A stretch of DNA of 64,000 nt. It comes from an uncultured Spirochaetota bacterium (GTDB lineage: Bacteria > Spirochaetota > Spirochaetia > SZUA-6 > Fen-1364). The DNA lies in assembly GCA_963781885.1 (NCBI GenBank), contig CAWAHW010000002.1, positions 147,119 through 211,118 on the forward strand, written 5' to 3'. Made by a program: the position numbers and the translations under genes. Shown in pieces: positions 13,332 to 34,433 of the stretch. Below the pieces are notes generated by a model. That model did no database searches and had not been told where the DNA came from. It worked only from the letters and a program-made list of their open reading frames with translations. How positions within the stretch are numbered: the first letter of the stretch is position 1; each line of letters begins with the position of its first letter.

Positions 13332-13334
13332 GCC

Positions 13335-16455: not shown

Positions 16456-16457
16456 CC

Positions 16458-17047: not shown

Positions 17048-17054
17048 GGGAGAA

Positions 17055-17522: not shown

Positions 17523-17527
17523 GACTC

Positions 17528-18319: not shown

Positions 18320-18337
18320 CTAGCCCCCGCAAACCCC

Positions 18338-19914: not shown

Positions 19915-19985
19915 CCTCACTCCCGCCGAAACCTCCGATTTGTTCGCGCGCGGGGTATTCCTTATATTAGGCGGGGGATCAACAC

Positions 19986-21020
19986 ATGAGTGACTACCTG
20001 CCTTCCGCCAATCGCTACGCGTCAATGCTGTACAGAAGATGCGGGAAAAGCGGCCTGCGGCTGCCTGCTCTTTCCCTGGGACTGTGGCATAACTTCGGTG
20101 GCGCGACGCCTCAGGAAAATGCCCGGCGGATGATCTTCCGTGCGTTCGACCTCGGCATCACGCATTTCGACCTGGCAAACAATTACGGCCCTCCCCCGGG
20201 GTCCGCGGAGGAGAACTTCGGAAAGATCCTCGCCCAGGATCTTGCCGGTCACCGCGACCAAATGATCGTCTCCACGAAGGCCGGCTACCTCATGTGGCCG
20301 GGCCCGTACGGGGAATGGGGCTCGCGAAAATACATCCTGGCGAGCCTCGATCAAAGCTTGAAACGGATGGGGCTCGACTACGTCGATATCTTCTATTCCC
20401 ACCGCCTGGACCCCGATACGCCGCTGGAGGAGACGCTCGGCGCGTTGCACAGCGCCGTGCAGCAGGGCAAGGCCTTGTACGTGGGCGTCTCTTCCTACTC
20501 CGCGGCCATGACGCGCAAGGCCTCGACGATTCTCCGGTCCCTCGGGACCCCGTGCCTCATCCACCAACCCTCGTATTCCATGCTGAACCGGTGGATCGAG
20601 AAGGGGCTGCTGGACGTCCTGGGCGAGGAAGGGATCGGCTGCATCGCCTTCTCGCCCCTGGCGCAGGGGATGCTTTCGGACAAATATCTTGCCGGCATTC
20701 CGGCCGGCACGAGGGCCGGGACGCAGGGCACGGCGCTGGACAAGAAGCTGTTGACGGAGGAGAACCTTCGACACATCAAGGCGCTGAATACAATCGCGAA
20801 GGCGCGCGGGCAGAGCCTCTCCCAGATGGCGCTCGCGTGGGTCCTGCGCGACACACGCGTCACCTCCGCACTGGTGGGAGCGAGCAGCCCGGCGCAGATC
20901 TCCGAGAGCGTCGCGGCCCTCTCGAACCTTCGTTTCACCACGGAGGAGATCGCGCGGATCGACAAGGACGCCGTGGAGGGCGGCATCAATCTTTGGGCGC
21001 AATCCAGCGACGCCGGCTGA
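19986..21020 (+). CDS. aldo/keto reductase (YghZ/Tas-like, L-glyceraldehyde-3-phosphate-reductase type)
   Basis: LPALSLGLWHNFG...DLANNYGPPPGSAEENFG...YVDIFYSHRLD. Confidence 0.85.
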   Translation: MSDYLPSANRYASMLYRRCGKSGLRLPALSLGLWHNFGGATPQENARRMIFRAFDLGITHFDLANNYGPPPGSAEENFGKILAQDLAGHRDQMIVSTKAGYLMWPGPYGEWGSRKYILASLDQSLKRMGLDYVDIFYSHRLDPDTPLEETLGALHSAVQQGKALYVGVSSYSAAMTRKASTILRSLGTPCLIHQPSYSMLNRWIEKGLLDVLGEEGIGCIAFSPLAQGMLSDKYLAGIPAGTRAGTQGTALDKKLLTEENLRHIKALNTIAKARGQSLSQMALAWVLRDTRVTSALVGASSPAQISESVAALSNLRFTTEEIARIDKDAVEGGINLWAQSSDAG

Positions 21021-21470: not shown

Positions 21471-22325
21471 ATGAAGGATCGCAGTCGTATCAAGAAGCCC
21501 GTTCGCACCTATTCGGCACCCGCGGTCGACAGGACGCTCGACATCCTGGAATACATGGCGGCGCACCCGCGTCCCTTCGGTACCACGGAGCTCTCACGCA
21601 GCCTCAACATACCGATCAATTCCGTATTCCGCATCCTCAAACGCCTGACGGACCGCGCCTATACGGTGCAGGATCCCTTTTCCGACGGCTACCAGCTCAG
21701 CACGAAGGTTTTCACCCTCGGCATGAGCCTGTATGTCAGGTTCGAGCTGCGCCAGCGCGTCCGGCCTCATCTCGAATGGCTCTGCCGGGAAACCGAGGAG
21801 ACCTGCCAGCTCCAGGTCCCGCAGGGGGACAAGATGCTGGTGCTGGACACCATCAGCCCCGAGGTCCAGTACTACATCCGGGTGGTGCCGGGCGGACTCG
21901 TTCACTATCACCCCAATGCCTTTGGAAAGGCGGTGCTCGCCTTCGATACCGAGGAGGAGATCAAGCGCCTCATCCCGCCGAGGCTGCCGGGGTTGACGCC
22001 GCACACCATCGTCCTGCGCACGGAACTCTTGAAGCAGCTCGAGAACGTGCGCAGGACGGGTCTCGCGTACGACAACGAGGAATACAACGAGGGGATCAGG
22101 TGCGTCGGCGCGCCGGTCTTCGACGTGGAAGGCAAGGTCGTGGCGGGTCTCGGGGTCACGGGGCTCGTGTTCACCTTCCGCAACCAAAGGCTGGCGGCGT
22201 TCGAGCAGCTCGTGCTCGAATGCGCCTTCCGCGTCTCCCGGGACATCGGGTACACGGGCGGCTTCTTCACCGACAAGATCGCGCGCCCCTTTTCCAACCA
22301 GCTCCAGAAGGCCGGCGGCTCCTGA
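21471..22325 (+). CDS. IclR-family transcriptional regulator
   Basis: N-terminal HTH (LDILEYMAAHPRPFGTTELSRSLNIPINSVFRILKRL) and a C-terminal IclR effector domain. Confidence 0.85.
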   Translation: MKDRSRIKKPVRTYSAPAVDRTLDILEYMAAHPRPFGTTELSRSLNIPINSVFRILKRLTDRAYTVQDPFSDGYQLSTKVFTLGMSLYVRFELRQRVRPHLEWLCRETEETCQLQVPQGDKMLVLDTISPEVQYYIRVVPGGLVHYHPNAFGKAVLAFDTEEEIKRLIPPRLPGLTPHTIVLRTELLKQLENVRRTGLAYDNEEYNEGIRCVGAPVFDVEGKVVAGLGVTGLVFTFRNQRLAAFEQLVLECAFRVSRDIGYTGGFFTDKIARPFSNQLQKAGGS

Positions 22326-22338: not shown

Positions 22339-23376
22339 TCAGGCCCTGATCGGGTAACGGCCGAGCTCCCGCCACGTCGTGAGCAACGCTCGATAATTCT
22401 CCGGCGTGACCGACGAGTGGATTGAGTTGCTCGACGAGAGGATGAAACCTCCGCCCGGCGCGCCGACCCGCAGCGCATGGCGCGTGGCGGCGGCGACTTG
22501 GTCGGGCGTGCCGAGGGTCATCAGGTGCGCGCAGTCTACATTGCCCTTGAGCGCAATGAGCGCCCCCAGCTTTGCCTTCACTTCCGCGAGGTCCATGCCG
22601 GCGACGGGATCGATGGGATCAAGGCAGTCGATGCCCGATTCCACGATCATGTCCATGAGCGGCCAGATCATGCCGTCGGTGTGCTTGATGACACGGAGGC
22701 CCAGCGCCTTGAACCCCTGCACGACGCGACGCAGGCCGGGCGCGAACAAGGCGCGAAAGTGCGCCGGTGACATCAGAGGCCCGCTGTCCCCGGCATAGTC
22801 GTCCCCCGTGTAGACGACCTTCGCGCCCCGTTGCGCGACCTCCTTCGCCATCGCCAGGTTGACGTCCACCGACATCTCGACCATGGCGGCGACAAGGGTC
22901 GGCTCGGAGACGATTGCCATGAGGAGGTTTTCGTATCCCATGAGGGAGCGGGGGATGGAAAAGACGTCGTTCAGATGGACGATCACCGCCTTCCGCCCGG
23001 CGTAGTCGCGGAGCGTCTTCTCCACGTGGAAGTAGCGTCCGGCGGCATGCGGATCAGGCGGTACGTAGCGCTCGAAGTCCCGCATGGTCCGTATCGGCGA
23101 TTCGACCTCTATGCCATGCTCCTCCGCTGACTCCTGCACGGTGTATCCCCACTCCGTGCGCCATCGCCCCGGTCCGGCGGGCGCCCTGGTCCAGTCGGGC
23201 TCCGCGATCACGGCGTCAAGCCCCATGCGGTCGGCGAAATCATTCAGCGAGATGCATCCCGGGGCGAGGGCTGCGCGCACCTTCCTGTCGATGGCCCATT
23301 CGAAATGGGGCACCCTGTCGGGCTCCTTGCGATCCAGCACCCGAAGGATCCGTTCCTCACCCGTCATGTCCGCCAT
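22339..23376 (-). CDS. uroporphyrinogen-decarboxylase (URO-D) family protein (MtaA/CmuA-like, not in a heme context)
   Basis: 345 aa TIM-barrel URO-D-like sequence. It is convergent with iclR and divergent from the SDR-led sugar operon. Confidence 0.75.
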   Translation of the reverse strand: MADMTGEERILRVLDRKEPDRVPHFEWAIDRKVRAALAPGCISLNDFADRMGLDAVIAEPDWTRAPAGPGRWRTEWGYTVQESAEEHGIEVESPIRTMRDFERYVPPDPHAAGRYFHVEKTLRDYAGRKAVIVHLNDVFSIPRSLMGYENLLMAIVSEPTLVAAMVEMSVDVNLAMAKEVAQRGAKVVYTGDDYAGDSGPLMSPAHFRALFAPGLRRVVQGFKALGLRVIKHTDGMIWPLMDMIVESGIDCLDPIDPVAGMDLAEVKAKLGALIALKGNVDCAHLMTLGTPDQVAAATRHALRVGAPGGGFILSSSNSIHSSVTPENYRALLTTWRELGRYPIRA

Positions 23377-23521
23377 TCGGTGCCTCCGATGATGATTTCA
23401 CCACCCAAGTAAAAAATATCATATCATATTTAAAATCTACTTGACAAATGGAATTTTACAAGTCATAGTCCGATTTGGTTTGATCCTGACAGATGATGCG
23501 TGAACGAGGGAGGTGCTTTGC

Positions 23522-24271
23522 ATGAGTGAATCTTTGAAGGGAAAAGTCGCCGTCATCTCCGCTGTCGGCTCGGGCTTTGCCAAGGCGACCGCGGAGCTTT
23601 TTGCGAAACTGGACAAGGTGAATCTCGTCGTCTTCGACATCGATGAAGCCGCGCTCAAGACCACGGTGGCCAACTGTCAGGCCGCGGGTTCCAGGGTTGT
23701 TTCGTTCAAGGGGGATGCCACGAAGCCCGAGACATTCGAGCGCGCGCTTTCGGAGAGCATCGGCAATTTTGGCAAGGTGGATTTCCTCATCAATTACGCC
23801 GGCGGGGCGGTCAAGGTGGCCCCCATCGAGGAGATGGATGACGCGGTGAACCGCAAGATCATCGATCTCAACCTCATGAGCACGATCATGAGCTGCCGCA
23901 CCTTCACTCCCCAGTTCAAGAAGCAGGGGTACGGGAAGATCATCAACGTGTCCAGCGCGTGCGACCGGCGTTCATGGCAGGGCTGGTCGGTCTACTCCGC
24001 GGCGAAGGCCGGGGTCAATGCGTTCACAAAGTGCCTTTACACGGAATTGCGTCCGTTGGGGATCGCGGTGACGCTCCTGGTGCCGGGCGGTTCCAACACC
24101 GGATTCCAGAAGGCAGCCCAGGGCGTCGACAAGTTCGAATGGGACGAGTCCCTCGCGGTGAGGCCCGAGCACTTCGCCGACATGGTCTACCAGACCTGCG
24201 CGCTGACAAGGGGCGGCTGCGTATCCGAGATGCTCGTGTATGGCCTGGCGCAGGACGTGAGCGGGTTCTGA
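23522..24271 (+). CDS. SDR-family oxidoreductase
   Basis: GKVAVISAVGSGFAKA glycine-rich motif and YSAAKAGV catalytic motif. RBS gagggagg. Confidence 0.85.
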   Translation: MSESLKGKVAVISAVGSGFAKATAELFAKLDKVNLVVFDIDEAALKTTVANCQAAGSRVVSFKGDATKPETFERALSESIGNFGKVDFLINYAGGAVKVAPIEEMDDAVNRKIIDLNLMSTIMSCRTFTPQFKKQGYGKIINVSSACDRRSWQGWSVYSAAKAGVNAFTKCLYTELRPLGIAVTLLVPGGSNTGFQKAAQGVDKFEWDESLAVRPEHFADMVYQTCALTRGGCVSEMLVYGLAQDVSGF

Positions 24272-24272
24272 C

Positions 24273-24782
24273 ATGAAAGAAATCGCCTGGAAAAAGCTGA
24301 GTCTGGAGGCTTTCGCTCCCTTTGGGGCGTATGCGCGGATGCTGAACCCTTCGGCCCTGAAGATCGGCGCGGAGCCAATCGAGTTTTTCCGCGACATGAT
24401 CCAATCCCAGTTGGGCACGACCTCACTTGCGTCCTTCGGTGTCTGCCGCGTGGTGAAAAGGCCGTGCGTCGTGGACGTGTCCGAGTACCACGACACCTGC
24501 TGCGAGATCGTGCTTCCCTTGGACGGCGACGTCCTGATGCACGTGGCGCCGGCGGTACCCGAGAAAGAGTTTCCTTTCGACCGGGCCGAGGTGTTTTTCG
24601 TGCCGAAGGGAACGATTTGCTGTCTGCGCCCGGGCGTGTGGCACCACGCTCCTTTCGCTCATGCAACGCAGGTCGTCAACTGTCTGGTCGTCCTTCCAGA
24701 GCGCACCTATATGAACGACTGCACGGTCTACCCGTTCCCGGCGGAAGAGCGGATCAGGATTGTCGGCGAGGGCGTGCTTTGA
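24273..24782 (+). CDS. ureidoglycolate-lyase (AllA)-like cupin protein
   Basis: About 169 aa. The N-terminal L-x-EAFAPFG pattern and cupin-like length resemble the AllA family, but the assignment is tentative. Confidence 0.5.
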   Translation: MKEIAWKKLSLEAFAPFGAYARMLNPSALKIGAEPIEFFRDMIQSQLGTTSLASFGVCRVVKRPCVVDVSEYHDTCCEIVLPLDGDVLMHVAPAVPEKEFPFDRAEVFFVPKGTICCLRPGVWHHAPFAHATQVVNCLVVLPERTYMNDCTVYPFPAEERIRIVGEGVL

Positions 24783-24894
24783 ATGCGCAATGTCATTTTT
24801 TATTTAGAATACGATTGGATTTTGGAGGTCGGTCTTGCTTAATTTATTTTGTAACAGTACTTTAGGACATTTGATATTTGAAATAAGATTTTTC

Positions 24895-24923
24895 TTGACA
24901 AATATGTATGCGCACAGCAGAAT
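24895..24923 (+). promoter_or_regulatory. candidate promoter of the ABC importer genes (TTGACA-17-CAGAAT)
   Basis: It lies in the 267-bp AT-rich gap upstream of the binding-protein gene. Confidence 0.4.
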
Positions 24924-25049
24924 GCCATCAAGAAAACCATCTTGAAAAAAAGGAGGTGGGAGAACGCAGCAGAACAACGGATCAAGGGCTTGGATTGTGA
25001 AAGTTGAGTGTACCGGTTTCCACAAACGTATCGAGGAGGGAGAGATCAC

Positions 25050-26075
25050 ATGAAGAAGACAGTCCTGTTGCTCGTCGCGCTCGCGCTCCTGGCCCCCATG
25101 GCATTCGCCAATGGCGGCGCAGAGAAGGCGAAGCCCATGAAGATCGCGTTCTTTGTATCAGATCTGAGCAACGTGTTTCACCAGGGGCAATTCGCGGAAG
25201 CGAAGAAGTACGCCAAGGAAAAGTACAACGCCGACGTGTACGCGTTTGACGGCAAGTCCGATTCCGCCGTCATGACGGCGAACATCGACCAGGTCGTGGC
25301 TCAGGGCATGGATGCGGCCACCCTCCACATCTGGGACGGCGATGCCGCGACCCCTGGCGTTCAAGCTGCCATCAAGAAGGGCATCATCATGACCGCGTTC
25401 TTCAGCCCGGTGGGCCAGACCGGGATCCCCGTGGCCCGCAGCGATGAGAAAGGCGTTTCTTTTGCCATGGGCGCGGAGATGGCCAAGCAGTGGAAGGCCG
25501 CATTCCCGAACAAGCCCATCGTGATGGTTGAGCTCGGATGGCCCGACAACACGGAAGTGAAGTCGGGACGCACCGACCCCTTCGTCCAGGGTGTCCTGTC
25601 CGTGGATCCTTCGGCGAAAGATCTCGGCTGCCAGGATGCGAGCAAGGGACCCGACACAGCCAAGCAGATCGTCACCGATCTCATGACCACGCACCCCGAA
25701 GTCAACCTGATCGACTCCGAGGCGGGCAACCTGACCGTCGGCACGATGGCAGCGCTGACGCAGGCCGGCAGGGGCAAGTTCAACAACGGCAAGCCGCTCA
25801 CGGAAATCGTCTGCAGCTGCGACTTCGACTCGGTCGAGATCAAGGAAGTCTACGATGCCAATAGCTCGCTGAAGCTCTCCCTGGGGCTTCCCCCGATTGA
25901 AACGGCACGGGGAAGAATCGACCTGATCATGGACATCAAGAACGGCAAGGTGAAGCAGATTTCACAACCCGCGGAAGAATACTTTTACAAGGCGTACAAC
26001 ATCTCCTATTGGACGATGCCGCGGGCCGATGCGGTGAAATGGCTGAACAGCCAATTCGGGACCACCGTTCAGTAG
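25050..26075 (+). CDS. sugar ABC transporter substrate-binding protein
   Basis: Signal peptide MKKTVLLLVALALLAPMAFA, a type-I periplasmic binding fold, and RBS gaggaggg. Confidence 0.85.
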   Translation: MKKTVLLLVALALLAPMAFANGGAEKAKPMKIAFFVSDLSNVFHQGQFAEAKKYAKEKYNADVYAFDGKSDSAVMTANIDQVVAQGMDAATLHIWDGDAATPGVQAAIKKGIIMTAFFSPVGQTGIPVARSDEKGVSFAMGAEMAKQWKAAFPNKPIVMVELGWPDNTEVKSGRTDPFVQGVLSVDPSAKDLGCQDASKGPDTAKQIVTDLMTTHPEVNLIDSEAGNLTVGTMAALTQAGRGKFNNGKPLTEIVCSCDFDSVEIKEVYDANSSLKLSLGLPPIETARGRIDLIMDIKNGKVKQISQPAEEYFYKAYNISYWTMPRADAVKWLNSQFGTTVQ

Positions 26076-26111
26076 CTTGATCGAAGCCTAAGAAAGCAGC
26101 AGTCTACCGAA

Positions 26112-26136
26112 GGGGGAGGCGGAAGCCTCCCCCTTT
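26112..26136 (+). terminator. intra-operon hairpin (9-bp GC stem, GGAA loop, short T-run), a probable partial terminator/attenuator after the binding-protein gene
   Basis: gggggaggc ggaa gcctccccc ttt. Confidence 0.5.
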
Positions 26137-26156
26137 CGCAGCAGGGGGGCGGATGC

Positions 26157-27671
26157 ATGAAGCTGACGGACAACGTCCTGGAAATCAGAGACCTCGTGAA
26201 GGATTTCCCCAGCGTACGGGCGGTCAATAACGTCAGTTTCGACATCAAGAGGAACACCGTGCATTGCCTGGTGGGAGAGAACGGGGCGGGCAAATCCACC
26301 CTCATCAAGATCCTCACCGGCGCCTCGATGCGTTCGAGCGGCAGCATTCTCCTGAACGGGATGGCATACACCCCGCACAGCACGCGCGACGCGAAGCAGA
26401 AAGGCATCAGCACGCTGTTCCAGGAATTGAACGTGGTGGATCAGCTCACCGTGGAGGAAAACCTCACACTCGGCATGGAGGACACGACCTTTGGATTCCT
26501 CCGCAAAACGGACAAGATCAATACGATGGTGAGCGTGATGAACAGCCTCGAACCGTCCATCAGGCCGCGGCAGCTCGTCTCCACCTTGAGCGTCGCGAAA
26601 AAACAGATCGTGGAGATCGCGAAGGCTGTCGCCACGGAGTCTGACATCATCATCATGGATGAGCCGACTGCCGCGATCTCCGAAAGCGAAATCAAGAGAT
26701 TGTTCGCCATCATCAAGAGCCTCCGAGAAAAGAACGTGACCGTCATCTACATATCGCACAGGCTCGACGAGATTTTCGAACTGGGCGACTACGTGACGGT
26801 CATGCGCGATGGAAAGCATATCGACACCAAGCTCGTGTCGGAGATCAAGGACCGATCGGAGCTGGTCAAGATGATGATCGGAAAGACCGTTTTCGAGCAG
26901 TACACGCCCAAAGAGGGCGAATGCAGGGACGCCATCCTCCAGGTCAGGCACCTCACCAACCACAAGCTCAACGACATTTCCTTCGAGGTCCACCAGGGAG
27001 AGATCGTTGGATTCTACGGCCTCGTGGGCGCCGGAAAGACCGAGCTCGCGCGTGCAATCTACGGGGTCGACCCTTACGAGGGGGATATCCTCTTCAAGGG
27101 CAGGAAGCTGCCGCCCTTCCCCGACAAGGTCATCGCCGCGGGGATCGCGCTTGTGCCGGAGGAGCGACGCTCGCAGGGGCTTTTCACCATCCTCACCATC
27201 CGCGGCAATGTGCCCGTCATGAACATGAAAAAAATCTCCCGCAACGGTTTCATCGACGCGGGGCAGGAGAGAAGGGTCACGCTCGACTACATCGACAAGC
27301 TCAGGATTTCCACGAACAGCACGGAGAAGGAAGCGTCGCAGCTCTCCGGGGGCAACCAGCAAAAAGTGGTCCTGGCCAAGTGCCTTTTTGCGGACGCGGA
27401 CCTGCTCATGCTCGACGAGCCCACACGCGGCATCGACGTGGGGGCGAAGAGCGAGATCTACGGCATCATCCGCCAGCTTTCCCATGAGGGGAAATCCATC
27501 ATGATCTTTTCCTCGGAGCTGCCCGAGGTCGTCAACATATGCGACAGCATCTACCTGCTCTATGACGGGAGCATGAAGGCCACCATAAGGAATGGCTGCG
27601 ACATCGACAGCGAAAAGATCCTCCATATCGTCACGGGCGGAGATGTCACCTCTGGTGACGGCGGGGAATGA
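26157..27671 (+). CDS. sugar ABC transporter ATP-binding protein (duplicated ABC domains, RbsA/MglA type)
   Basis: Two Walker A motifs (GENGAGKST and GLVGAGKTE) and the LSGGNQQK signature. 504 aa. Confidence 0.9.
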   Translation: MKLTDNVLEIRDLVKDFPSVRAVNNVSFDIKRNTVHCLVGENGAGKSTLIKILTGASMRSSGSILLNGMAYTPHSTRDAKQKGISTLFQELNVVDQLTVEENLTLGMEDTTFGFLRKTDKINTMVSVMNSLEPSIRPRQLVSTLSVAKKQIVEIAKAVATESDIIIMDEPTAAISESEIKRLFAIIKSLREKNVTVIYISHRLDEIFELGDYVTVMRDGKHIDTKLVSEIKDRSELVKMMIGKTVFEQYTPKEGECRDAILQVRHLTNHKLNDISFEVHQGEIVGFYGLVGAGKTELARAIYGVDPYEGDILFKGRKLPPFPDKVIAAGIALVPEERRSQGLFTILTIRGNVPVMNMKKISRNGFIDAGQERRVTLDYIDKLRISTNSTEKEASQLSGGNQQKVVLAKCLFADADLLMLDEPTRGIDVGAKSEIYGIIRQLSHEGKSIMIFSSELPEVVNICDSIYLLYDGSMKATIRNGCDIDSEKILHIVTGGDVTSGDGGE

Positions 27672-28696
27672 ACGTGGAGACGAAGCGGGCGCGGAAAATG
27701 ACGATCGGCGGCAGGATAAGCAACGAGTCGTTCATCACCCTGTTCATGATCGGCGTGCTCGTTGTCCTGTTCGGGGTTGCCTGCGCGGTTGTGCCGAGAT
27801 TCTACCTGCCTCAGAACATGATCAATCTCCTCACGAACAACTGGTACATCATCATCCTGGGCATTGGCGTCACGTTCCTCCTGATCACCGGCAACTTCGA
27901 CATGTCCGTGGGCGGCGTCATTGCCATGACGGGAGTCCTCTCCGTCTGGTTCTGCCAGGACGCCACCGTGCAGCAGAACTCGCTCGCCGTCGGCCTGGGG
28001 CTCCCCTATGGGGTCGCGGTCGCGCTCGCTCTGCTCTGTGCCATGGGCATCGGCGCCATCAACGCATTTTTCATCGCACGGCTGAAAGTGCCCTCCATCA
28101 TCATCACGCTGGGCACGATGATGATCGCGCGCGGCGTTGCCCAGATCGCCGCGCAAGGGGCGCAGCGGAACACCAGCCTGCCCGATGTGTTCGGCGTGCT
28201 TGGCAACCTGACCATCCGGGGCACCTCCATCAAGCTCGCCGTGCTCATCATGGCGGCCCTCATCGTTGCCGCGTTCGTCTTTGAAAAAAAGACGGTTGCC
28301 GGCCGGAGGACCTACCTCATCGGCGCCAACTCCACGGCGGCGCGGCTCTCGGGCGTCAACGTGAGACGGCACCTCACCTCCCTGTTCATCATCAGCTCCC
28401 TCCTGGCGGGAATCACGGGGATACTGCTTTCATCCGAGTTCAAGGCGGGGGGGTCCAGCCGCGCGACGGGATACGAGTTCGACGCGCTGGTGATCTCCCT
28501 GCTGGGGGGGGTCAGCATCGCGGGCGGGTTCGGCTCGGTGCTGGGGATGTTCGTCGGGGCGATTATTCTCTCCGTCGTGACCTCGGCGGCCACGGGTCTC
28601 CTTCTGTCGCCGGACTGGCAATTCACCATCAAGGGCGTCGTGACCTTCATCGCGATCCTTGCGCAGCGGTTTGCCCTGGACAAGAGGAAGGGTTGA
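27668..28696 (+). CDS. ABC transporter permease (RbsC-like)
   Basis: 342 aa, multi-TM. ATGA overlap with the ATPase. Confidence 0.85.
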   Translation: MNVETKRARKMTIGGRISNESFITLFMIGVLVVLFGVACAVVPRFYLPQNMINLLTNNWYIIILGIGVTFLLITGNFDMSVGGVIAMTGVLSVWFCQDATVQQNSLAVGLGLPYGVAVALALLCAMGIGAINAFFIARLKVPSIIITLGTMMIARGVAQIAAQGAQRNTSLPDVFGVLGNLTIRGTSIKLAVLIMAALIVAAFVFEKKTVAGRRTYLIGANSTAARLSGVNVRRHLTSLFIISSLLAGITGILLSSEFKAGGSSRATGYEFDALVISLLGGVSIAGGFGSVLGMFVGAIILSVVTSAATGLLLSPDWQFTIKGVVTFIAILAQRFALDKRKG

Positions 28697-28733
28697 AAAC
28701 TCCACGGGGTACCGTAGAAGGGAGCATGGTGAC

Positions 28734-29771
28734 GTGAACAGCGCAAAGGAAGACACACTGCGCACGCAGCTGGAACGATCGAACGCCGTGAGATCGAACA
28801 TCAAGAAGCTCTATATCTACGTCGTGCTGGTCCTGATCGTGGCCATCTTCAGCGTGGTGAAGCTCGGCCAGGTGGAGTTCTTCGGCCGGGGGCATTTTCT
28901 CAGCCCGGACAGCATCATCAACCTCCTGCGCAGCGCCGTGCCCATATTGACACTGAGCGGCGCGTTCACGCTCCTGATGATCTCGGGCTATATCGACCTT
29001 TCCGTCGGCAGCGCAATGAGCCTCAGCGCCGTCGTGTTTTCCTGGCTGATCCTGAACGGCGCGAGCTTCCTGCCCGCGATGATCATCACCCTGGTCATGG
29101 GCATCGGCCTGGGCTTCCTCAACGGCCTGCTGGTCATGAAGCTGCGCATCACGCCGGTGATCGCGACCCTTGTCACGCTGAACCTGTTCAAGGGCATCGC
29201 GCTCCTGATCGTGCCGGACGGCATTTCAGCCATCAAGGGGAGCGCGACAAAGGCCATGCCCGCCTGGATCAACGACTACGCACGCATGGATGTTTTGCTG
29301 GGCCTGCCCTGGGCATTCTACATCGCCATCGTCGTGATCGTCGCATTGGTCATCGTGCAGCGGAAGACCATCCTCGGCAAGTACGCCGCCGCGATCGGCG
29401 GGAACCGCACGTCCGCGGAGCTGTCGGGCATCAACGCCGTCAGGATGGTATGGCTCCTGTACATCATCGTCGGCTTCTTCGCCGCCCTTGCCGGAATGGC
29501 GCGCGCCAGCTACATGTCCCTGGGCGACCCGCTGTCCGGTGACGGCATGGAGCTGGACTGCATCATCGCGGTGCTGCTGGGCGGCACGGCCTTTTCGGGG
29601 GGCGAGGGATCCGTCGCCAAGACAATCATTGGCGCGCTCATCATCATGTGCCTGACGACCGGCCTCATGACGGTCATCCCGGCCTTCTGGCAGACGATGG
29701 CAAAGGGCAGCGTGCTCATTGCCGCCGTCGTGCTCAACGCCCTCCTCGTGAGGGAGAAGGTCAAAGCCTGA
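28734..29771 (+). CDS. ABC transporter permease (RbsC-like), second TMD
   Basis: A GTG start at 28734 is inferred, with RBS gaagggag. Confidence 0.8.
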   Translation: MNSAKEDTLRTQLERSNAVRSNIKKLYIYVVLVLIVAIFSVVKLGQVEFFGRGHFLSPDSIINLLRSAVPILTLSGAFTLLMISGYIDLSVGSAMSLSAVVFSWLILNGASFLPAMIITLVMGIGLGFLNGLLVMKLRITPVIATLVTLNLFKGIALLIVPDGISAIKGSATKAMPAWINDYARMDVLLGLPWAFYIAIVVIVALVIVQRKTILGKYAAAIGGNRTSAELSGINAVRMVWLLYIIVGFFAALAGMARASYMSLGDPLSGDGMELDCIIAVLLGGTAFSGGEGSVAKTIIGALIIMCLTTGLMTVIPAFWQTMAKGSVLIAAVVLNALLVREKVKA

Positions 29772-29820
29772 CGCGGGGCGGATCCCTCATTGAATGGATG
29801 AGGCGGCGGGAAGAATGGGA

Positions 29821-31332
29821 ATGACGGCGGCAAGGTATCTCATGGGCATCGACAACGGCGGCACGGTGACAAAGGCCGGGATCTACGACCCGACAGGGAC
29901 CGAGATCGCCGTCTCCGCGGTGAAGACCGAGATGCGCTTTCCGATGCCCGGCCACGCTGAGAAGGACATGGACGCCTTGTGGGCGGCAAATGTGCGCGTG
30001 ATCGGGGAGGCCATTCGCCGCGCGGGTATCGATGCGTCCCTGATCGCCGCCGTTGCCGTCACCGGACACGGCAATGGCATGTACCTTGTCGCGGCCGATG
30101 GAAAACCGGCCTGGAACGGCATCAACTCCGCAGACAGCCGCGCCGCATCCTTCGTCGAGAAATGGTACGCGGACGGCACCTTTGAACGCATTCTTCCCCT
30201 GACGTGCCAGGCCATCTGGCCCGCACAACCCGCGGCGCTCCTTGCATGGTTCAAGGTGCATGAGCCGGAGGCGTATGCACGCGCGCGCTGGGTCTTCCAG
30301 TGCAAGGACTACATCCGCTATCGGCTCACGGGAGAGCCCTGCGCGGAGCTCACGGATTCGTCGGGCACCAGCCTCATGAATGTCCATACGCTCCGCTACG
30401 ACCCGCGGGTGCTTGAGCTTTTCGGCATCTCCGATGCAATGGACAAGCTGCCTCCGGTGCGGCTGTCCTCCGACATCTGCGGCCGGGTGAGTCGCGACGC
30501 GGCGGTCGTCACCGGCCTTCGCGAAGGCACTCCCGTTGCCGGCGGGCTCTTCGACATCGACGCGTGCGCCCTGGCAACCGGAATCACGGATTCAGAGAAG
30601 CTGTGCCTCATCGCCGGATCGTGGAGTATCAACGAATACATCAGCCCCATGCCAGTGGCATCGCCGGACCTTTTCATGACCTCCGCGTACTGCATCCCCG
30701 GTTACTGGCTGGAGAGCGAGGCGAGCGCCACCTCGGCGAGCAACCTCGAATGGTTCGTGACCGAGCTTATGGGCGGAGAGCGTGAGAAGGCCGAGGCGGC
30801 CGGGCGCTCCGTCTTCGCGCTGTGCAACGAAATGGTCGAATCGATCGCTCCGACCGTGGCCGACGTTCTCTTCCTGCCGTTCCTCTACGGAAGCAACGCG
30901 GGGGCGCATGCATCGGGCTGCTTCATCGGGCTCCACGGCTGGCACACCCGGGCGCACATGCTGCGCGCGGTCTACGAGGGGGTCGTCTTCTCGCACCGCA
31001 CCCACGTCGAGCGCCTTCTGAAATTCCGTGATCGGCCGGGCGCGGCCCGGATCGCCGGCGGAGCCGCGAAGTCCGACGTCTGGGTGCAGATGTTCGCCGA
31101 CGTGCTGCAGCTTCCCATCGAGATCACTGGCTCGGAAGAGCTGGGCGCCATGGGCGCGGCGATCTGCGCCGGGGTCGCCGTCGGCATGTTCGAAAGCTTC
31201 GGGGACGCCGTGGCGCGCATGGTGCACGTGGCGCGGACGGTGGAACCGGATCCCGGTCGCAAATCGGTCTATGACGGGAAATACGCCCGGTACCAGGGCT
31301 TTGTGCGAGCGCTGCGCGATGCCTGGAAATAA
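29821..31332 (+). CDS. FGGY-family carbohydrate kinase (L-xylulose/erythrulose-kinase-like)
   Basis: YLMGIDNGGTVTKAGIYD...HAEKDMDALW. The start could equally be 29815. Confidence 0.85.
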   Translation: MTAARYLMGIDNGGTVTKAGIYDPTGTEIAVSAVKTEMRFPMPGHAEKDMDALWAANVRVIGEAIRRAGIDASLIAAVAVTGHGNGMYLVAADGKPAWNGINSADSRAASFVEKWYADGTFERILPLTCQAIWPAQPAALLAWFKVHEPEAYARARWVFQCKDYIRYRLTGEPCAELTDSSGTSLMNVHTLRYDPRVLELFGISDAMDKLPPVRLSSDICGRVSRDAAVVTGLREGTPVAGGLFDIDACALATGITDSEKLCLIAGSWSINEYISPMPVASPDLFMTSAYCIPGYWLESEASATSASNLEWFVTELMGGEREKAEAAGRSVFALCNEMVESIAPTVADVLFLPFLYGSNAGAHASGCFIGLHGWHTRAHMLRAVYEGVVFSHRTHVERLLKFRDRPGAARIAGGAAKSDVWVQMFADVLQLPIEITGSEELGAMGAAICAGVAVGMFESFGDAVARMVHVARTVEPDPGRKSVYDGKYARYQGFVRALRDAWK

Positions 31333-32881
31333 GAGGACGTGCCTCGCGGGTATCGACCTCGGATCGACGAGTCTCAAATGCGTGATCTACGACCTCGCGG
31401 GCAATGTGGTGGCACGCGGGAGCCGTCCCACGGAGCGCCTGCATCCCGACGCCGCGCATCCTGACTGGACCGTGTGGGACCCTGCGCAGATATGGGGTGG
31501 CGCGGCCGCAGCCGCGCGGGAGGCGACAGGGTGTCTCGGCGACGCCGGGAGCATCGCCGCCGTGGCCGTCACGGGCATGGGCATGGACGGTCTGCCGGTG
31601 GATGAGGACGGTGCGTGGCTCTATCCGTTCATCAGCTGGCTGTGCCCTCGGACGGAACCGCAGCACCAATGGTGGCGCGACAACATCGGGGCGGAGCGGA
31701 CCTTCGCCATCGGCGGAAACACGCTGTGGCGTTTCGGCACCGCCCTGCGCCTGCTCTGGATGGCCGCGCACGAACCGGCAATCCTCGCCCGCACACACAA
31801 GTGGCTCCTGATCGAGGATTTCCTGAACTTCATGCTCTGCGGCAGCATGGCCACCGACTACAGCATGGCCTCGTGCACGATGCTCTTCGACCAGCGCGCG
31901 CGCGCGTGGTCGCCGGAGCTCCTCTCCCTGTCTTCGATCGACAGCGGCCTGCTTTGCGATCCCCGCCCCAGCGGCACGGTACTGGGCGAGGTCACCGGGA
32001 GCGCCGCTTCCGCAACCGGCATCCCCGCCGGCACGCCGGTCGTGCTGGGGGGGCATGACTACCTCTGTGGCGCGCTGCCCGTCGGCGCCGTCGCCCCCGG
32101 CATGGCGCTCGACGTGACGGGGACCTGGGAGGTCGTTCACACCGCCATCCCCGCGCCTGTGCTGACGCCCGCGCTCCAGGCCGTGGGTGCGACGGTTGAA
32201 TGCCACGTTGCACGCGACATGTATTCCGCCATGGGGGCCGCCGTATCGTCTGAAATGCTGGAATGGTACCGCCGGGAGTACGGGTCCGAGGCGAGTGCCC
32301 GATCCCGTGAGCGCGGCTGCGCCGACTGGGAGACGCTGATGGAGGAGGCCGCAGGATCGCCACCCGGCAGCAGGGGAGCGCTCTTCCTTCCCCACATGAG
32401 CGGCGCCGGGTGTCCGATCGTCGACACTCACTCGCGCGGCGGCTTCGTGGGTCTGAGCGACCGCACGACCCGGGGCGACATGCTGCGCGCGCTTATCGAG
32501 GGACTGGACTACCAGCTCCTGGACATCATCATCGCCCTGCAGGCGAACCTCGGGGTGGGCGTCTCCCGTCTCGTGGTCGTCGGCGGGGCGGCGCGCAATG
32601 CCTTCTGGATGCAGAACAAGGCCGACGTCATCGGACGGGTCATCGAGGTGTCGGAGATAGAGGACGCGAGCCCTCTGGGCGCCGCGATGCTCGCCGGCAT
32701 CGGCGTGGGAATCTACCGGGATGAGAGAGATGCCTTCCAGCAGGTCCGCAAACCGATGAAAACCTTTGAGCCGGATACGGGCGCCGCGGCGCGCTACGCC
32801 GAGTGGTTCCCGCTCTACAAGGCCGTCTACCCGGCCCTCCGGCAGATCAACCACGCCGTCTCCGAAAGGGAGCCGGCATAA
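31319..32881 (+). CDS. FGGY-family carbohydrate kinase (second paralog)
   Basis: CLAGIDLGSTSLKCVIYD...HPDWTVWDP. 14-nt overlap with the preceding kinase. Confidence 0.85.
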   Translation: MPGNKRTCLAGIDLGSTSLKCVIYDLAGNVVARGSRPTERLHPDAAHPDWTVWDPAQIWGGAAAAAREATGCLGDAGSIAAVAVTGMGMDGLPVDEDGAWLYPFISWLCPRTEPQHQWWRDNIGAERTFAIGGNTLWRFGTALRLLWMAAHEPAILARTHKWLLIEDFLNFMLCGSMATDYSMASCTMLFDQRARAWSPELLSLSSIDSGLLCDPRPSGTVLGEVTGSAASATGIPAGTPVVLGGHDYLCGALPVGAVAPGMALDVTGTWEVVHTAIPAPVLTPALQAVGATVECHVARDMYSAMGAAVSSEMLEWYRREYGSEASARSRERGCADWETLMEEAAGSPPGSRGALFLPHMSGAGCPIVDTHSRGGFVGLSDRTTRGDMLRALIEGLDYQLLDIIIALQANLGVGVSRLVVVGGAARNAFWMQNKADVIGRVIEVSEIEDASPLGAAMLAGIGVGIYRDERDAFQQVRKPMKTFEPDTGAAARYAEWFPLYKAVYPALRQINHAVSEREPA

Positions 32882-32903
32882 ACAACACAGCAAGGAGAGT
32901 CCC

Positions 32904-33545
32904 GTGTACGAAGGAGAGAGACAACAGATCATTGACGTCGGCATCGCGCTCGACCGCTATCGTCTCATCAGCCTCTCGGGAGGAAATGTGAGCATGAGGA
33001 TCGGGCGGCACATCCTCGTCACGCCGTCAGGCATGTCCTACGAGACGCTGGTGCCGGCCGACGTCGTGGTGATGGACGCGACGGGCACGGTGATCGAAGG
33101 GGAGCGGCGTCCGTCGGTGGACACCGTTGCACTGCTGCACATCTTCAACCACATGCCGGGAGTGAATGCGGTCATCCACACGCACCAGCCCTACGCCACC
33201 GCCATCGGGCTGGTCATGGACGAGCTTCCCGCTTTCTGCACGACGCTCGTGAATGCCACGCTCGGCGCCGTGACCGTGGCTCCGTACAGCTCCGCCGCGA
33301 GCCTGGACATGGGGGTGCGCACCGTGGAATACATCGGCGACAAACGCGCCGTCATCCTTCGCAACCACGGTGTGGTCACCCTCGGTCCGTCCCTCAAGGA
33401 TGCTCTCTATGCCGCCGTATACCTGGAAGACGCATCGCGCTCCTACTGCGCCGCGTGCACCATGGGGAAGCCGCGGTCCTTGACGCCCGCCCAGGTCGAC
33501 GAGGCCGTGGAATCATTCCGACACTACGGCCAGGGAAAGAAGTAG
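32904..33545 (+). CDS. class II aldolase/adducin-family protein (fuculose-phosphate-aldolase / ribulose-5-P-4-epimerase / ketose-1-P-isomerase type)
   Basis: SGGNVSMRIG...HTHQPYATA. A GTG start is inferred, with RBS caaggagag. Confidence 0.8.
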   Translation: MYEGERQQIIDVGIALDRYRLISLSGGNVSMRIGRHILVTPSGMSYETLVPADVVVMDATGTVIEGERRPSVDTVALLHIFNHMPGVNAVIHTHQPYATAIGLVMDELPAFCTTLVNATLGAVTVAPYSSAASLDMGVRTVEYIGDKRAVILRNHGVVTLGPSLKDALYAAVYLEDASRSYCAACTMGKPRSLTPAQVDEAVESFRHYGQGKK

Positions 33546-33554
33546 GCGGACGGC

Positions 33555-34433
33555 ATGGCCGGATCCGGCGCGCCGGGCGCCTTCACCGACGCGAGCTTCC
33601 GCTGGGGCATCTACGAAAAGGCGCTGCCCGCGGGCGTGTCGTGGCCTGCCATGCTTTCCGCGGCGGCGGCGGCGGGCTACCGGTTCGTCGAGATCTCCGT
33701 CGATGAAAGCGACGAGCGGCTCGCACGGCTGGAATGGACTCCCGGCCAGCGACGCGACTTCCACAAGGCCCTTGCCGGCGGCCCCGTTTCTGTGGACACG
33801 ATGTGCCTGAGCGGGCATCGCAGGTTCGCCCTGGGAAGCGCATCAAAACCTCAGCGAGAGAGGGCGCTTGAGATCATGCGGCGCGCAATCGATTTTGCCG
33901 CGGAGTTCGGCGTCCGCATCATCCAGGTGGCGGGCTACGACGTGCATTACGAACAGTCCACCGATGAGACCCGGGCCCTCTATGCCGATGCGATTGCGCG
34001 CGCCGCCGAATGGGCGCGTCGATCCTGCGTCATGCTCGCGCTGGAAAACGTGGATTGCCCGGTCGTGGATTCGATCGAGGCGGCCCTTCGGTTCGTGCAG
34101 GCCGCCGATACCCCCTGGTTTCAGGTCTACCCCGACATCGGAAACCTCGCGGCGATGGGCAAGGACGTGGGGCGCGAGCTTCTCCTGGGTAGCCGCCACC
34201 TCGTCGGGCTCCATCTGAAGGACACGCGCCGCGGCGAGTTCCGGAGGGTGCCCTTCGGCGAAGGGATCGTGGACTTCGACGCGGCATTCAGGACCTTGAA
34301 GCTGATCGGTTTTCGCGGGCCCTTGATGGTGGAGATGTGGAACGAAGCGGCGGTCGATCCGGTTGCGGTCGCCGCCCAGGCGCGGCAGTGGTTGGGGGAG
34401 AAGCTGCGAAAGGCTTTCGCGAGAGAGGATTGA
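33555..34433 (+). CDS. sugar-phosphate isomerase/epimerase (xylose-isomerase-like TIM barrel, UlaE/SgbU-like)
   Basis: 292 aa TIM-barrel sequence (ALENVDCPVV...HLVGLHLKDT). Confidence 0.8.
   Translation: MAGSGAPGAFTDASFRWGIYEKALPAGVSWPAMLSAAAAAGYRFVEISVDESDERLARLEWTPGQRRDFHKALAGGPVSVDTMCLSGHRRFALGSASKPQRERALEIMRRAIDFAAEFGVRIIQVAGYDVHYEQSTDETRALYADAIARAAEWARRSCVMLALENVDCPVVDSIEAALRFVQAADTPWFQVYPDIGNLAAMGKDVGRELLLGSRHLVGLHLKDTRRGEFRRVPFGEGIVDFDAAFRTLKLIGFRGPLMVEMWNEAAVDPVAVAAQARQWLGEKLRKAFARED

Follow-up and report, generated by a model that had tools for sequence, protein, structure and literature searches.

The systems with which the locus described here was compared include the yiaK-S operon (lyxK-sgbH-sgbU-sgbE) and the ulaD-E-F genes for L-ascorbate catabolism of Escherichia coli, in which LyxK phosphorylates 3-keto-L-gulonate as well as L-xylulose. 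Tetritol (erythritol and threitol) catabolism is represented by the systems of Mycobacterium smegmatis (EltD/DthD, LerK, DerK, LerI and DerI) and Brucella (EryA-C, EryH and EryI), whose defining isomerases belong to the triosephosphate isomerase family (LerI/EryH) and the RpiB family (DerI/EryI); LerI is a TpiA homologue, and Brucella EryC has been named a D-erythrulose-1-phosphate 3-epimerase (PMC10733421). The FucK/FucA and RhaB/RhaD pairs feed the fucose and rhamnose microcompartments (PVM, GRM5), and the DUF4867 family has ties to ketose metabolism and to FGGY kinases (PMC11968277). For SPU-type (sugar-phosphate utilization) microcompartment (BMC) loci the proposed feed is DNA-derived deoxyribose-5-phosphate (Sutter 2021, PMC8217296; Dwyer 2024, PMC11585597); these two descriptions mention neither a transporter nor Spirochaetes, and the words 'kinase' and 'epimerase' occur in them twice each, in reference-list entries and not in locus descriptions.

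The window analyzed is a stretch of 64,000 nt from an uncultured Spirochaetota bacterium from peat (Bacteria; Spirochaetota; Spirochaetia; SZUA-6; Fen-1364), covering positions 147,119 to 211,118 of the forward strand of contig CAWAHW010000002.1 (GCA_963781885.1), and the feature studied lies at 23522-34433. By Pfam profile search this region holds ten genes, all on the + strand, that form a sugar import and catabolism operon just downstream of an SPU-type BMC operon (Table 1). A preliminary description of this DNA had listed the same co-directional set, assigned it to carbohydrate import and phosphorylative catabolism, and placed an IclR-family and a divergent URO-D-family gene at the 5' border; all ten genes were recovered at the same coordinates, both border genes are present, and the general role is supported. 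The reading frames look coding by codon-position GC, and intergenic spacing ranges from -14 to +81 nt with the exception of a 267-nt AT-rich gap 5' of the binding-protein gene.

Table 1. Features of the sugar operon and its surroundings (window coordinates).
Feature	Position	Strand	Basis
SPU-type BMC operon	11440..21020	+	Pfam + NCBIfam
IclR-family regulator	21471..22325	+	Pfam HTH_IclR + IclR_C
URO-D-family protein, divergent from operon	22339..23376	-	PF01208 112 bits
Overlapping divergent promoter-like sites, URO-D/SDR intergenic	23418..23469	both	consensus matches only
Short-chain dehydrogenase/reductase (SDR)	23522..24271	+	adh_short 147 bits
AllA/DUF4867-like cupin	24273..24782	+	Ureidogly_lyase 34 bits, DUF4867 29 bits
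Promoter-like site in 267-nt gap 5' of SBP gene	24895..24923	+	TTGACA-17-CAGAAT
Periplasmic sugar-binding protein (SBP), CUT2/RbsB-like	25050..26075	+	Peripla_BP_4 89 bits
Perfect hairpin, 11-bp stem, SBP/ATPase intergenic	26110..26135	+	AAGGGGGAGGC-GGAA-GCCTCCCCCTT
Tandem ABC ATPase	26157..27671	+	two ABC_tran domains
ABC permease 1	27668..28696	+	BPD_transp_2 115 bits
ABC permease 2	28734..29771	+	BPD_transp_2 118 bits
FGGY kinase 1, LyxK-like (L-xylulose / 3-keto-L-gulonate kinase type)	29815..31332	+	similarity to LyxK
FGGY kinase 2, distinct subfamily	31319..32881	+	below all NCBIfam cut-offs
Class II aldolase-family protein	32904..33545	+	Aldolase_II 150 bits
UlaE/SgbU-type L-ribulose-5-phosphate (L-xylulose-5-phosphate) 3-epimerase	33555..34433	+	AP_endonuc_2 TIM barrel

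More than 12 MAG contigs carry these genes in identical order at 65-95% protein identity, and the gene order of the operon is therefore not due to chance. Most of these relatives carry an additional 424-aa gene, with no Pfam match, between permease 2 and kinase 1, which is absent in the window. In at least five related loci from Spirochaetota, the sugar operon and this BMC operon are neighbors; two arrangements occur, one as in the window (L052, L053 and L056) and one with the BMC on the opposite side (L032); this synteny backs the connection with the neighboring BMC proposed in the preliminary description, and products of the sugar operon may flow into the compartment. The BMC operon begins with two SDRs, BMC-H, CsoS1D-like BMC-T, BMC-H and two BMC-P genes (14386-14706 and 14703-14996), followed by AldDh, two further BMC-P genes, RpiB, DERA, Rpe, aldose 1-epimerase and AKR. 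On NCBIfam models the DERA passes the deoC equivalog (271.5 against 117.3), Rpe the rpe model (271.9 against 212.6), AldDh PRK15398 (646 against 403) and the AKR the L-glyceraldehyde-3-phosphate reductase subfamily (509 against 448). The RpiB-family gene, placed in this operon by the earlier reading, is present at 16998-17522; its product has Asp instead of the catalytic Cys and scores 70.8 against 240 bits on the NCBIfam model for DerI, the isomerase of D-erythrulose-4-phosphate.

The importer is of the neutral-sugar CUT2 type by similarity. The only PDB relatives of the SBP, whose N terminus resembles a signal peptide, are ribose-binding proteins (E about 1e-11), and the tandem ATPase is similar to AraG/XylG/RbsA/LsrA, yet under every NCBIfam cut-off. 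For permease 2 a GTG start was chosen, with AGAAGGGAG ahead of the GTG. The divergent promoter-like sites in the URO-D/SDR intergenic region read TTGACA-17-CATAGT on the + strand and TTGTCA-18-TATGAT on the - strand, and CTTGACAAAT is common to the site at 23440 and the promoter-like site 5' of the SBP gene. An Rfam search of the 267-nt gap gave no match, and RNA folding of the gap gave no unusual structure. The SBP/ATPase intergenic hairpin may serve in transcript processing or stabilization.

Kinase 1 is 39% identical to E. coli LyxK over its full length (358 bits; next paralogue LsrK, 181 bits), and in a tree with seven E. coli FGGY paralogues it groups with LyxK at 100% bootstrap. In the same tree kinase 2 forms a separate clade with 100% support. 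Its best E. coli match is FucK (31% identity, 209 bits), followed by XylB and kinase 1 (29% each), and its NCBIfam scores are 249 against 471 for FucK and 258 against 380 for XylB; plasmid genes match it at 31-34% identity, the majority of them annotated as xylulokinase. The two genes, earlier called paralogous FGGY kinases, are thus paralogous at the family level, but at 29% identity they belong to different FGGY subfamilies.

The TIM barrel exceeds the curated NCBIfam cut-offs for L-ribulose-5-phosphate 3-epimerase (NF009688, 346 against 317 bits; TIGR00542, 327 against 272 bits), shares 50% identity with E. coli UlaE and 47% with SgbU, and matches the UlaE structure 3cqh at 297 bits. Its gene adjoins that of the class II protein, and the pair travels together in at least 12 related loci. 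From its residues the class II protein is probably a sugar-phosphate 4-epimerase: UlaF is its best E. coli match, at the positions of AraD D76 and T116 it has Asp and Thr, the His ligands and Tyr229 are kept, and its PS(V)DT motif is of the epimerase type, with Asp at a position that is Glu in FucA, RhaD and YgbL. This Asp replaces the catalytic Glu73 of FucA in the window and in all four aligned orthologues (L001, L003, L005 and L051), as in epimerases, and Thr stands in place of FucA Tyr113. The protein is under every NCBIfam cut-off (best model PRK06557, 'L-ribulose-5-phosphate 4-epimerase' subfamily, 174 against 251 bits), and since it also lacks AraD K42, D120 and H218 and the AraD insertion, its activity could differ.

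The SDR carries the YxxxK motif but is under every NCBIfam cut-off (GolD/DthD model, 92 against 286 bits), and a PDB sequence search gave no match at E<=1e-25. The Pfam scores of the cupin only slightly exceed their cut-offs, and its PDB matches, AllA and the DUF4867 structure 9gyy, are marginal. At the 5' border, the IclR-family protein is under all NCBIfam equivalog cut-offs (best BhcR, 151 against 350 bits) and 24% identical to E. coli PlaR/YiaJ; by analogy with the role of YiaJ/PlaR in yiaK-S it is likely the regulator of the operon, and its gene adjoins the URO-D gene also in L016, L052, L053 and L056. The URO-D protein scores at most 84 against 244 bits on the MtaA/CmuA models, and the MtaA zinc ligands H-x-C...C are replaced in it by H232-T-D234 and N/S. 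A URO-D gene lies next to a kinase-2 orthologue in loci of three phyla (Spirochaetota, Planctomycetota and Anaerolineales), and the two proteins make up an independently conserved second module, which may be another entry point.

The best reading of the operon, held at about even chances, is an Sgb/Ula-like pathway that leads from L-xylulose, or from a ketose related to it, to D-xylulose-5-phosphate. A sugar or polyol would be imported by the CUT2-type transporter, the SDR would make a 2-ketose or carry out the reduction to one, and kinase 1 would phosphorylate L-xylulose or a close analogue. The UlaE/SgbU-type enzyme would then epimerize L-xylulose-5-phosphate at C3 to L-ribulose-5-phosphate and the AraD/UlaF-like class II protein would epimerize this at C4 to D-xylulose-5-phosphate, which would enter the pentose phosphate pathway via the Rpe of the adjoining BMC operon. 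This route is favored because the 3-epimerase cut-offs are passed, kinase 1 belongs to the LyxK clade and the class II protein is UlaF-like with Asp, and because of the adjacency of the class II and UlaE-like genes, the IclR neighbor and the bona fide Rpe in the next operon. Against it, no role is left for kinase 2, for the cupin or for the URO-D protein, whose conservation is strong, and informative relatives from which a substrate could be named were found neither for the SBP (PDB) nor for the SDR (NCBIfam, PDB). The adjacency of the BMC is also unaccounted for, since D-xylulose-5-phosphate has no simple route to 2-deoxyribose-5-phosphate, the substrate of DERA.

An aldehyde-generating route into the BMC, in keeping with that adjacency in five loci, would supply the compartment with a plausible aldehyde: a FucK-like kinase 2 would form a ketose-1-phosphate, from which the class II protein, acting as an aldolase, would release DHAP and glycolaldehyde or lactaldehyde, and the acylating AldDh would consume the aldehyde. 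FucK, the best E. coli match of kinase 2, is a 1-kinase, and the class II protein is of FucA length, resembles FucA in lacking the AraD insertion and in having Thr rather than Lys at AraD-K42, and finds fuculose-phosphate aldolases as its top PDB matches. Aldehyde release by this protein, offered as an alternative in the preliminary description, is nevertheless made less likely by the Asp in place of the aldolase Glu. With the exchange of Tyr113, the large shortfall against the equivalog cut-offs for FucK and FucA, the constant pairing of the class II gene with a UlaE-type epimerase and the presence in the BMC of an aldehyde-forming DERA, this route is judged unlikely.

A keto-acid substrate is possible because LyxK also phosphorylates 3-keto-L-gulonate, yet a UlaD/SgbH homologue was searched for in the window and was not found. 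In a pathway for 2,3-diketo-L-gulonate or an L-ascorbate-derived acid, the URO-D protein would replace this enzyme non-orthologously: after reduction of the diketo acid by the SDR, 3-keto-L-gulonate would be phosphorylated by kinase 1 and the product decarboxylated to L-xylulose-5-phosphate by the URO-D protein, and the two epimerases would follow. All other steps of E. coli yiaK-S have counterparts, IclR included, and the canonical decarboxylase is the missing one; the URO-D protein, whose family is named after a decarboxylase, shows strict conservation alongside the system, with as many as three paralogues in a single related locus, and lacks the Cys residues that serve as zinc ligands in the methyltransferase branch, and SGL-type lactonase-like genes occur in L001 and L051. 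However, the tightest partner of the URO-D gene is kinase 2 rather than kinase 1, the pair in Planctomycetota has no epimerases nearby, and the transporter is of a neutral-sugar type. To our knowledge no URO-D-family enzyme decarboxylates a sugar acid, and a full-text literature search returned no paper connecting the family with FGGY kinases; the pathway is considered quite improbable.

Tetritol catabolism as in M. smegmatis or Brucella, in which the kinases were equated with LerK/DerK, the class II protein with LerI, the TIM barrel with DerI1 and the BMC RpiB with DerI2, agrees with the overall composition of the operon (polyol-type SDR, ABC importer, FGGY kinases and sugar-phosphate isomerase/epimerase folds). 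EryC has the UlaE-like fold, as the TIM barrel does, and one Planctomycete locus has a kinase-2 orthologue beside a GlpD-like dehydrogenase, an arrangement that resembles EryA-EryB. The individual assignments are not supported: LerI is a triosephosphate isomerase homologue and not a class II protein, and no gene of its family was found in the scanned ORFs of the window; the TIM barrel passes the cut-offs for UlaE/SgbU; DerI is of the RpiB family, and the BMC RpiB scores below the DerI cut-off and lacks the Cys; kinase 1 groups with LyxK; and the SDR is distant from GolD/DthD. Clustering of the kinases and isomerases with L-ascorbate or pentose enzymes, named beforehand together with an adjacent UlaD-type decarboxylase as evidence against tetritols, was observed, and the decarboxylase was not; tetritol catabolism is very improbable. 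Lsr-like autoinducer-2 uptake and processing, with LsrK-like kinases, a two-permease importer and the DeoC/LacD-family protein as LsrF, is effectively refuted: LsrK is the best PDB match of both kinases, the importer architecture is LsrACDB-like and SorC/LsrR-type regulators occur in related loci, but LyxK, absent from the PDB, matches kinase 1 with twice the score of LsrK, no LsrB, LsrF or LsrG homologue is present in the window, and the DeoC-family protein scores above the equivalog cut-off for DERA.

Compared with E. coli yiaK-S and ula, the operon shares a LyxK-clade kinase, a UlaE/SgbU-type 3-epimerase beside a class II protein with the epimerase Asp (sgbU-sgbE, ulaE-ulaF), first genes for a dehydrogenase and for a small beta-barrel protein, a binding-protein-dependent importer and an IclR-family regulator alongside (yiaJ). 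It differs in the absent decarboxylase, in having an SDR rather than a YiaK-type reductase, an AllA/DUF4867 cupin rather than YiaL (DUF386) and an ABC rather than a TRAP importer, in its short and divergent 4-epimerase candidate, and in the added second kinase, URO-D protein and BMC. With the tetritol systems it has in common the ABC importer, polyol dehydrogenase, kinases and isomerase/epimerase steps into the pentose phosphate pathway; unlike theirs, the RpiB present here, in the neighboring operon, is of the BMC-core type. The small AllA-like metal cupin beside ketose enzymes and FGGY kinases recalls the DUF4867 / SftX-SqvB cupins of sulfoquinovose pathways, but the match is marginal (29 bits) and no sulfoglycolysis genes are in the window. 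As in the fucose and rhamnose systems, an FGGY kinase and a class II protein lie near an aldehyde-oxidizing BMC; in contrast to FucA/RhaD and FucK, the catalytic Glu is exchanged for Asp in the class II protein and kinase 2 misses the FucK cut-off, and the signature enzyme of the BMC is DERA, not a lactaldehyde-handling system. The BMC agrees with the published descriptions of SPU loci in its DERA and RpiB pair, acylating AldDh, BMC-H, CsoS1D-like BMC-T and several BMC-P genes, and with SPU6 in having neither PduS nor PTAC and in an RPI reported without the catalytic Cys. Relative to those same descriptions, the BMC operon in the window additionally includes Rpe, a mutarotase and an L-glyceraldehyde-3-phosphate-reductase-like AKR, and an imported-sugar operon is attached to it.

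All ten genes of the co-directional operon drawn in the preliminary description were matched in Pfam, confirming it as real. Start codons were adjusted by ribosome-binding sites. Intergenic spacing within the operon ran from -14 to +81 nt, with the exception of a 267-nt AT-rich gap 5' of the SBP gene. Back-to-back promoter-like hexamers were located by consensus matching in the 145-nt intergenic region between the URO-D-family and SDR genes, and more of them in the 267-nt gap; a riboswitch or other structured RNA in this gap was rejected on the grounds that no Rfam family was matched anywhere in the window and the fold z-score was +0.8. The GC content of the window is 58-70%. Within the genome collection it is closest to a peat-fen Spirochaetaceae MAG whose kinase 2 orthologue is 94% identical; the exact kinase 2 protein of the window had no record in the gene-position index.

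Features of the window discussed in the text
Feature	Position (nt)	Strand	Content	Basis
Second, partial importer, upstream of BMC operon	619-3373 and 9105-10112		CUT2-type sugar ABC importer, Gfo/Idh/MocA oxidoreductase; SBP weakly rhizopine-SBP-like	
Divergent regulator	10177-11328	-	GntR-HTH, periplasmic-binding domain	
Palindrome GCTATATAGC	11349-11358		candidate operator	
Palindrome TATAGCGCTATA	11414-11433		candidate operator	
BMC operon	11440-21020	+	two SDRs, BMC-H, CsoS1D-like BMC-T, BMC-H, BMC-P pair, acylating AldDh, BMC-P pair, RpiB, DERA, Rpe, aldose 1-epimerase, AKR	Pfam/NCBIfam
RpiB gene	16998-17522	+		
AKR gene	19986-21020	+		
Small ORF	21058-21405		about 98-115 aa, no Pfam match; between AKR and IclR genes	
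IclR gene	21471-22325	+		
URO-D-family gene	22339-23376	-		
Sugar operon	23522-34433	+	SDR, AllA/DUF4867-like cupin, Peripla_BP_4 SBP, tandem ABC ATPase, two BPD_transp_2 permeases, two FGGY kinases, Aldolase_II (class II) protein, AP_endonuc_2 TIM barrel	Pfam
SDR gene	23522-24271	+		
Hairpin	26110-26135		perfect, 11 bp, GC-rich; between SBP and ATPase genes	
Kinase 1 gene	29815-31332	+		
Kinase 2 gene	31319-32881	+		
Class II protein gene	32904-33545	+		
TIM-barrel gene	33555-34433	+		
CoA-enzyme activase-type gene or gene pair	34528 to ~39650	-	BcrAD_BadFG ATPase domains, DUF2229	
Lower-GC region	41500-44400		GC 0.57; ORFs without Pfam matches except a weak CHAP-domain match; may be foreign DNA	
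Downstream gene set	47170-58270		amidohydrolase, xanthine-dehydrogenase-family molybdoenzyme (FAD, 2Fe-2S and MoCo subunits), carbamoyltransferase-like protein, YegS-type kinase; resembles purine or N-heterocycle degradation clusters	

The operon enzymes were compared with a set of E. coli K-12 reference genes. The TIM-barrel protein scored above two curated L-ribulose-5-phosphate 3-epimerase cut-offs (NF009688, 346 vs. 317 bits; TIGR00542, 327 vs. 272 bits), was 50% identical to UlaE and 47% identical to SgbU of E. coli, and matched the sequence of the UlaE crystal structure (PDB 3cqh) at 297 bits; it is a predicted L-ribulose-5-phosphate (L-xylulose-5-phosphate) 3-epimerase of the UlaE/SgbU family. 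The class II protein fell under all NCBIfam cut-offs (best score 174 vs. 251 bits), and its best E. coli match was UlaF, with FucA a close second. When aligned with AraD, UlaF, SgbE, FucA, RhaD and YgbL, it was found to keep Asp76, Thr116, the three His ligands and the C-terminal Tyr229 (AraD numbering) and to lack Lys42, Asp120, His218 and the insertion of AraD, while its PS(V)DT motif places Asp at the site held by Glu in the aldolases and the decarboxylase, and Thr stands at the position of FucA Tyr113. The motif and the retained residues read as an epimerase signature, and the protein, probably a sugar-phosphate 4-epimerase, is a candidate L-ribulose-5-phosphate 4-epimerase of the AraD/UlaF/SgbE type. 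In the related loci its gene always adjoins the UlaE-like gene, as sgbU adjoins sgbE and ulaE adjoins ulaF in E. coli.

Kinase 1 was aligned over its full length with LyxK at 39% identity and 358 bits, the next paralogue being LsrK at 181 bits, and together with its orthologues it clustered with LyxK at 100% bootstrap in a tree built on seven E. coli FGGY paralogues; by sequence it is classed as a LyxK-type FGGY kinase. The remaining proteins were less telling of substrate: the SBP has distant kin only, among ribose-binding proteins; the SDR showed no close characterised relative by NCBIfam cut-offs, and a PDB sequence search gave nothing useful; and for the group to which the cupin belongs, not even a solved structure has settled the function (PMC11968277). 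In the route proposed here, a sugar or polyol would be imported by the ABC importer and interconverted with a 2-ketose by the SDR, kinase 1 would yield L-xylulose-5-phosphate or a close analogue, and the 3-epimerase and probable 4-epimerase would convert this to D-xylulose-5-phosphate, which Rpe could take into the pentose phosphate pathway.

Several other routes were weighed against this one. A FucK/FucA-type pair was contradicted by scores of 249 vs. 471 bits for FucK (TIGR02628) and 85 vs. 400 bits for fucA (TIGR01086), and by the Asp held by the class II protein at the position of the catalytic Glu73 of FucA. The preliminary description had mapped the operon onto tetritol catabolism, taking the kinases as LerK/DerK, the class II protein as LerI, the TIM barrel as DerI1, the RpiB of the BMC operon as DerI2 and the SDR as the dehydrogenase. 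LerI is a homologue of TpiA (PMC10733421), from which the class II aldolase fold differs, and no match to the triosephosphate-isomerase family (PF00121) was obtained among about 70 window ORFs scanned with Pfam. The RpiB scored 70.8 bits against the cut-off of 240 for the D-erythrulose-4-phosphate isomerase equivalog of its family (NF051858), the SDR scored 92 bits against 286 for GolD/DthD (NF005309), and the TIM barrel was placed with the UlaE/SgbU-type 3-epimerases instead. The same description held that enzymes resembling L-ascorbate or pentose types, together with an adjacent UlaD-type decarboxylase, would speak against tetritols; the resemblance was found and the adjacent decarboxylase was absent. 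With UlaD and SgbH of E. coli as tblastn queries, no 3-keto-L-gulonate-6-phosphate decarboxylase was detected, whether in the window (E<=1e-2) or among 42 related loci (E<=1e-5); this enzyme is required solely for keto-acid entry to the Sgb/Ula branch. The tetritol interpretation of the operon is not supported. A fungal-style route from aldose reductase to polyol dehydrogenase, in which the AKR and mutarotase from the BMC operon would take part, was dropped, as the AKR belongs to the L-glyceraldehyde-3-phosphate reductase NCBIfam subfamily (509 vs. 448 bits) and is absent from the otherwise syntenic related loci L052 and L053. An Lsr-like reading, prompted by LsrK as top PDB match, was rejected, LyxK being far closer to kinase 1, the LsrK model giving 192-203 vs. 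528 bits for the kinases, LsrB, LsrF and LsrG being undetected in the window by tblastn, and the DeoC-family protein being DERA.

The proposed L-xylulose-5-phosphate route gives no part to kinase 2, which was 29% identical to kinase 1, 31% to FucK and about 29-34% to XylB-type xylulokinases, missed every curated cut-off and formed its own clade in the FGGY tree; a plasmid tblastn search returned matches of 31-34% only, mostly annotated as xylulokinase. The most constant neighbour of the kinase 2 subfamily is the URO-D-family gene. The pair occurs in contigs of Spirochaetota, Planctomycetota and Anaerolineales (including L001, L019-L031, L036 and L051), flagging the URO-D-family protein as a constant partner of this type of FGGY kinase in three phyla; the Anaerolineales URO-D-like protein is 63% identical to that of the window, and three URO-D-family paralogues sit together in one locus of the Spirochaetota. 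In the Planctomycetota neighbourhoods of the pair nothing was conserved beyond a frequently adjacent SDR-like gene, and GlpD-like, class II FBP aldolase and 2-hydroxyacid dehydrogenase genes were each found near the pair in single loci only. By score the URO-D-family protein is not an MtaA-type methyltransferase (84 vs. 244 bits for the MtaA/CmuA corrinoid methyltransferases), and at the positions of the MtaA-type His-x-Cys...Cys zinc site its aligned residues are His, Asp and Asn/Ser. A full-text literature search returned no paper linking the URO-D family with FGGY kinases. Separately, a conserved 424-aa gene lacking any Pfam match stands between permease 2 and kinase 1 in most of the related Spirochaetota clusters (e.g. 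L004, 7180-8454). It is absent from the window (between 29771 and 29815) and from its nearest relative, L006; an hhalign probability of 29% faintly suggests that its product may be a distant URO-D-like relative.

The neighbouring BMC operon encodes two BMC-H, one BMC-T and four EutN/CcmL (BMC-P) shell proteins. Its DERA passed the cut-off of the deoC equivalog by a wide margin (271.5 vs. 117.3 bits) and has an N-terminal amphipathic extension or helix of the kind typical of encapsulation peptides; the Rpe scored above its own equivalog cut-off, and the AldDh falls in the EutE/PduP-type subfamily (646 vs. 403 bits). The RpiB (LacAB_rpiB, 165 bits) has an N-terminal extension and the motif LDGAG, with Asp at the position of the catalytic Cys, the E. 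coli RpiB motif being ICGTG. In this it is like the RPI of SPU6, which binds DERA and hardly isomerises ribose-5-phosphate: such a Cys-to-Asp replacement at the catalytic position fits the description of a weakly active DERA partner. A DERA and RpiB pair defines the SPU-type BMC (PMC8217296; PMC11585597), and the operon is assigned to this type from its predicted DERA (pfam01791), RpiB (pfam02502), acylating AldDh and shell including a BMC-P triplet. In SPU BMCs the role of the RpiB partner is unexplained (PMC11585597).

The order of BMC operon, IclR gene, URO-D-family gene and sugar operon was also found in three related loci (L052, L053 and L056), and a different arrangement, sugar operon then BMC operon, in L032; in all, at least five related loci join the sugar operon to an SPU-type BMC. 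The same BMC operon type was present without the sugar operon in L059 and the more distant L061 (DERA 82% and 63% identical, respectively), which carry Fe-ADH or aldehyde ferredoxin oxidoreductase genes in its place, and more distant SPU loci had no such sugar cluster, save one weak kinase 1-like match (34% identity) in L110. Because it is present in the former four loci and missing in the latter, the coupling of operon and BMC is lineage-specific yet repeated. Small ORFs like that between the AKR and IclR genes, of similar size and placement, were seen in L052, L053 and L059.

In nine related loci (L001, L005, L010, L014, L018, L035, L038, L041 and L051) the kinase 2 and class II genes are separated by genes for a TPP-dependent E1 alpha/beta of the acetoin/pyruvate dehydrogenase type, accompanied by E2 in L001 and by E2, a dihydrolipoamide-dehydrogenase-like (E3) gene and lipoyl synthase in L051. 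None of the loci compared held both E1 alpha/beta and the BMC; many E1-bearing loci are truncated on the upstream side, and one complete locus has neither. Since locus coverage is incomplete and one locus lacks both, E1 and BMC as mutually exclusive back-ends of the operon stay a conjecture.

SPU BMCs are among the most widespread BMC types, and their feedstock, deoxyribose-5-phosphate from DNA, is only conjectured. D-xylulose-5-phosphate, Rpe and the RpiB-like protein lead to ribose-5-phosphate, not to the 2-deoxyribose-5-phosphate cleaved by DERA. A bolder proposal, which is considered improbable, is that in peat Spirochaetota the SPU-type BMC is fuelled by the sugar imported by the operon and not by DNA-derived deoxyribose, with the URO-D-family protein and the FucK-distant kinase performing an undescribed sugar transformation (e.g. 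decarboxylation or rearrangement) that would link the sugar to the DERA/RpiB core or, in the E1-bearing relatives, to E1 instead.

Other signals and neighbours of the two operons were recorded. No operator common to the BMC promoter and the sugar-operon promoters was found; the 111-nt region 5' of the BMC operon has its own two palindromes, which adjoin the divergent regulator. The hairpin downstream of the SBP gene may be of the type of site that typically raises the SBP transcript relative to the remaining ABC operon. The unrelated CoA-enzyme activase-type gene or gene pair, which is very large, converges on the operon end; a counterpart of its terminal part is conserved in L010 and L011, 3' of the UlaE-like gene.

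Should the operon prove to be no more than an L-xylulose or pentitol route, it would extend known metabolism only modestly, to uncultured bacteria of peat. Its attachment to a BMC operon that itself includes Rpe and a mutarotase offers a concrete, testable lead on the feed of the compartment in a single lineage. The parts of the operon come from known families, and what is unusual is the missing decarboxylase, the conserved pair of kinase 2 and URO-D-family protein, and the repeated adjacency to a BMC. An IclR regulator adjoins the operon as YiaJ/PlaR adjoins yiaK-S in E. coli, and the whole is best read, from its predicted enzymes, as a variant of the Sgb/Ula L-xylulose-5-phosphate branch with an ABC importer, an extra kinase, a URO-D-like protein and an attached SPU-type BMC.
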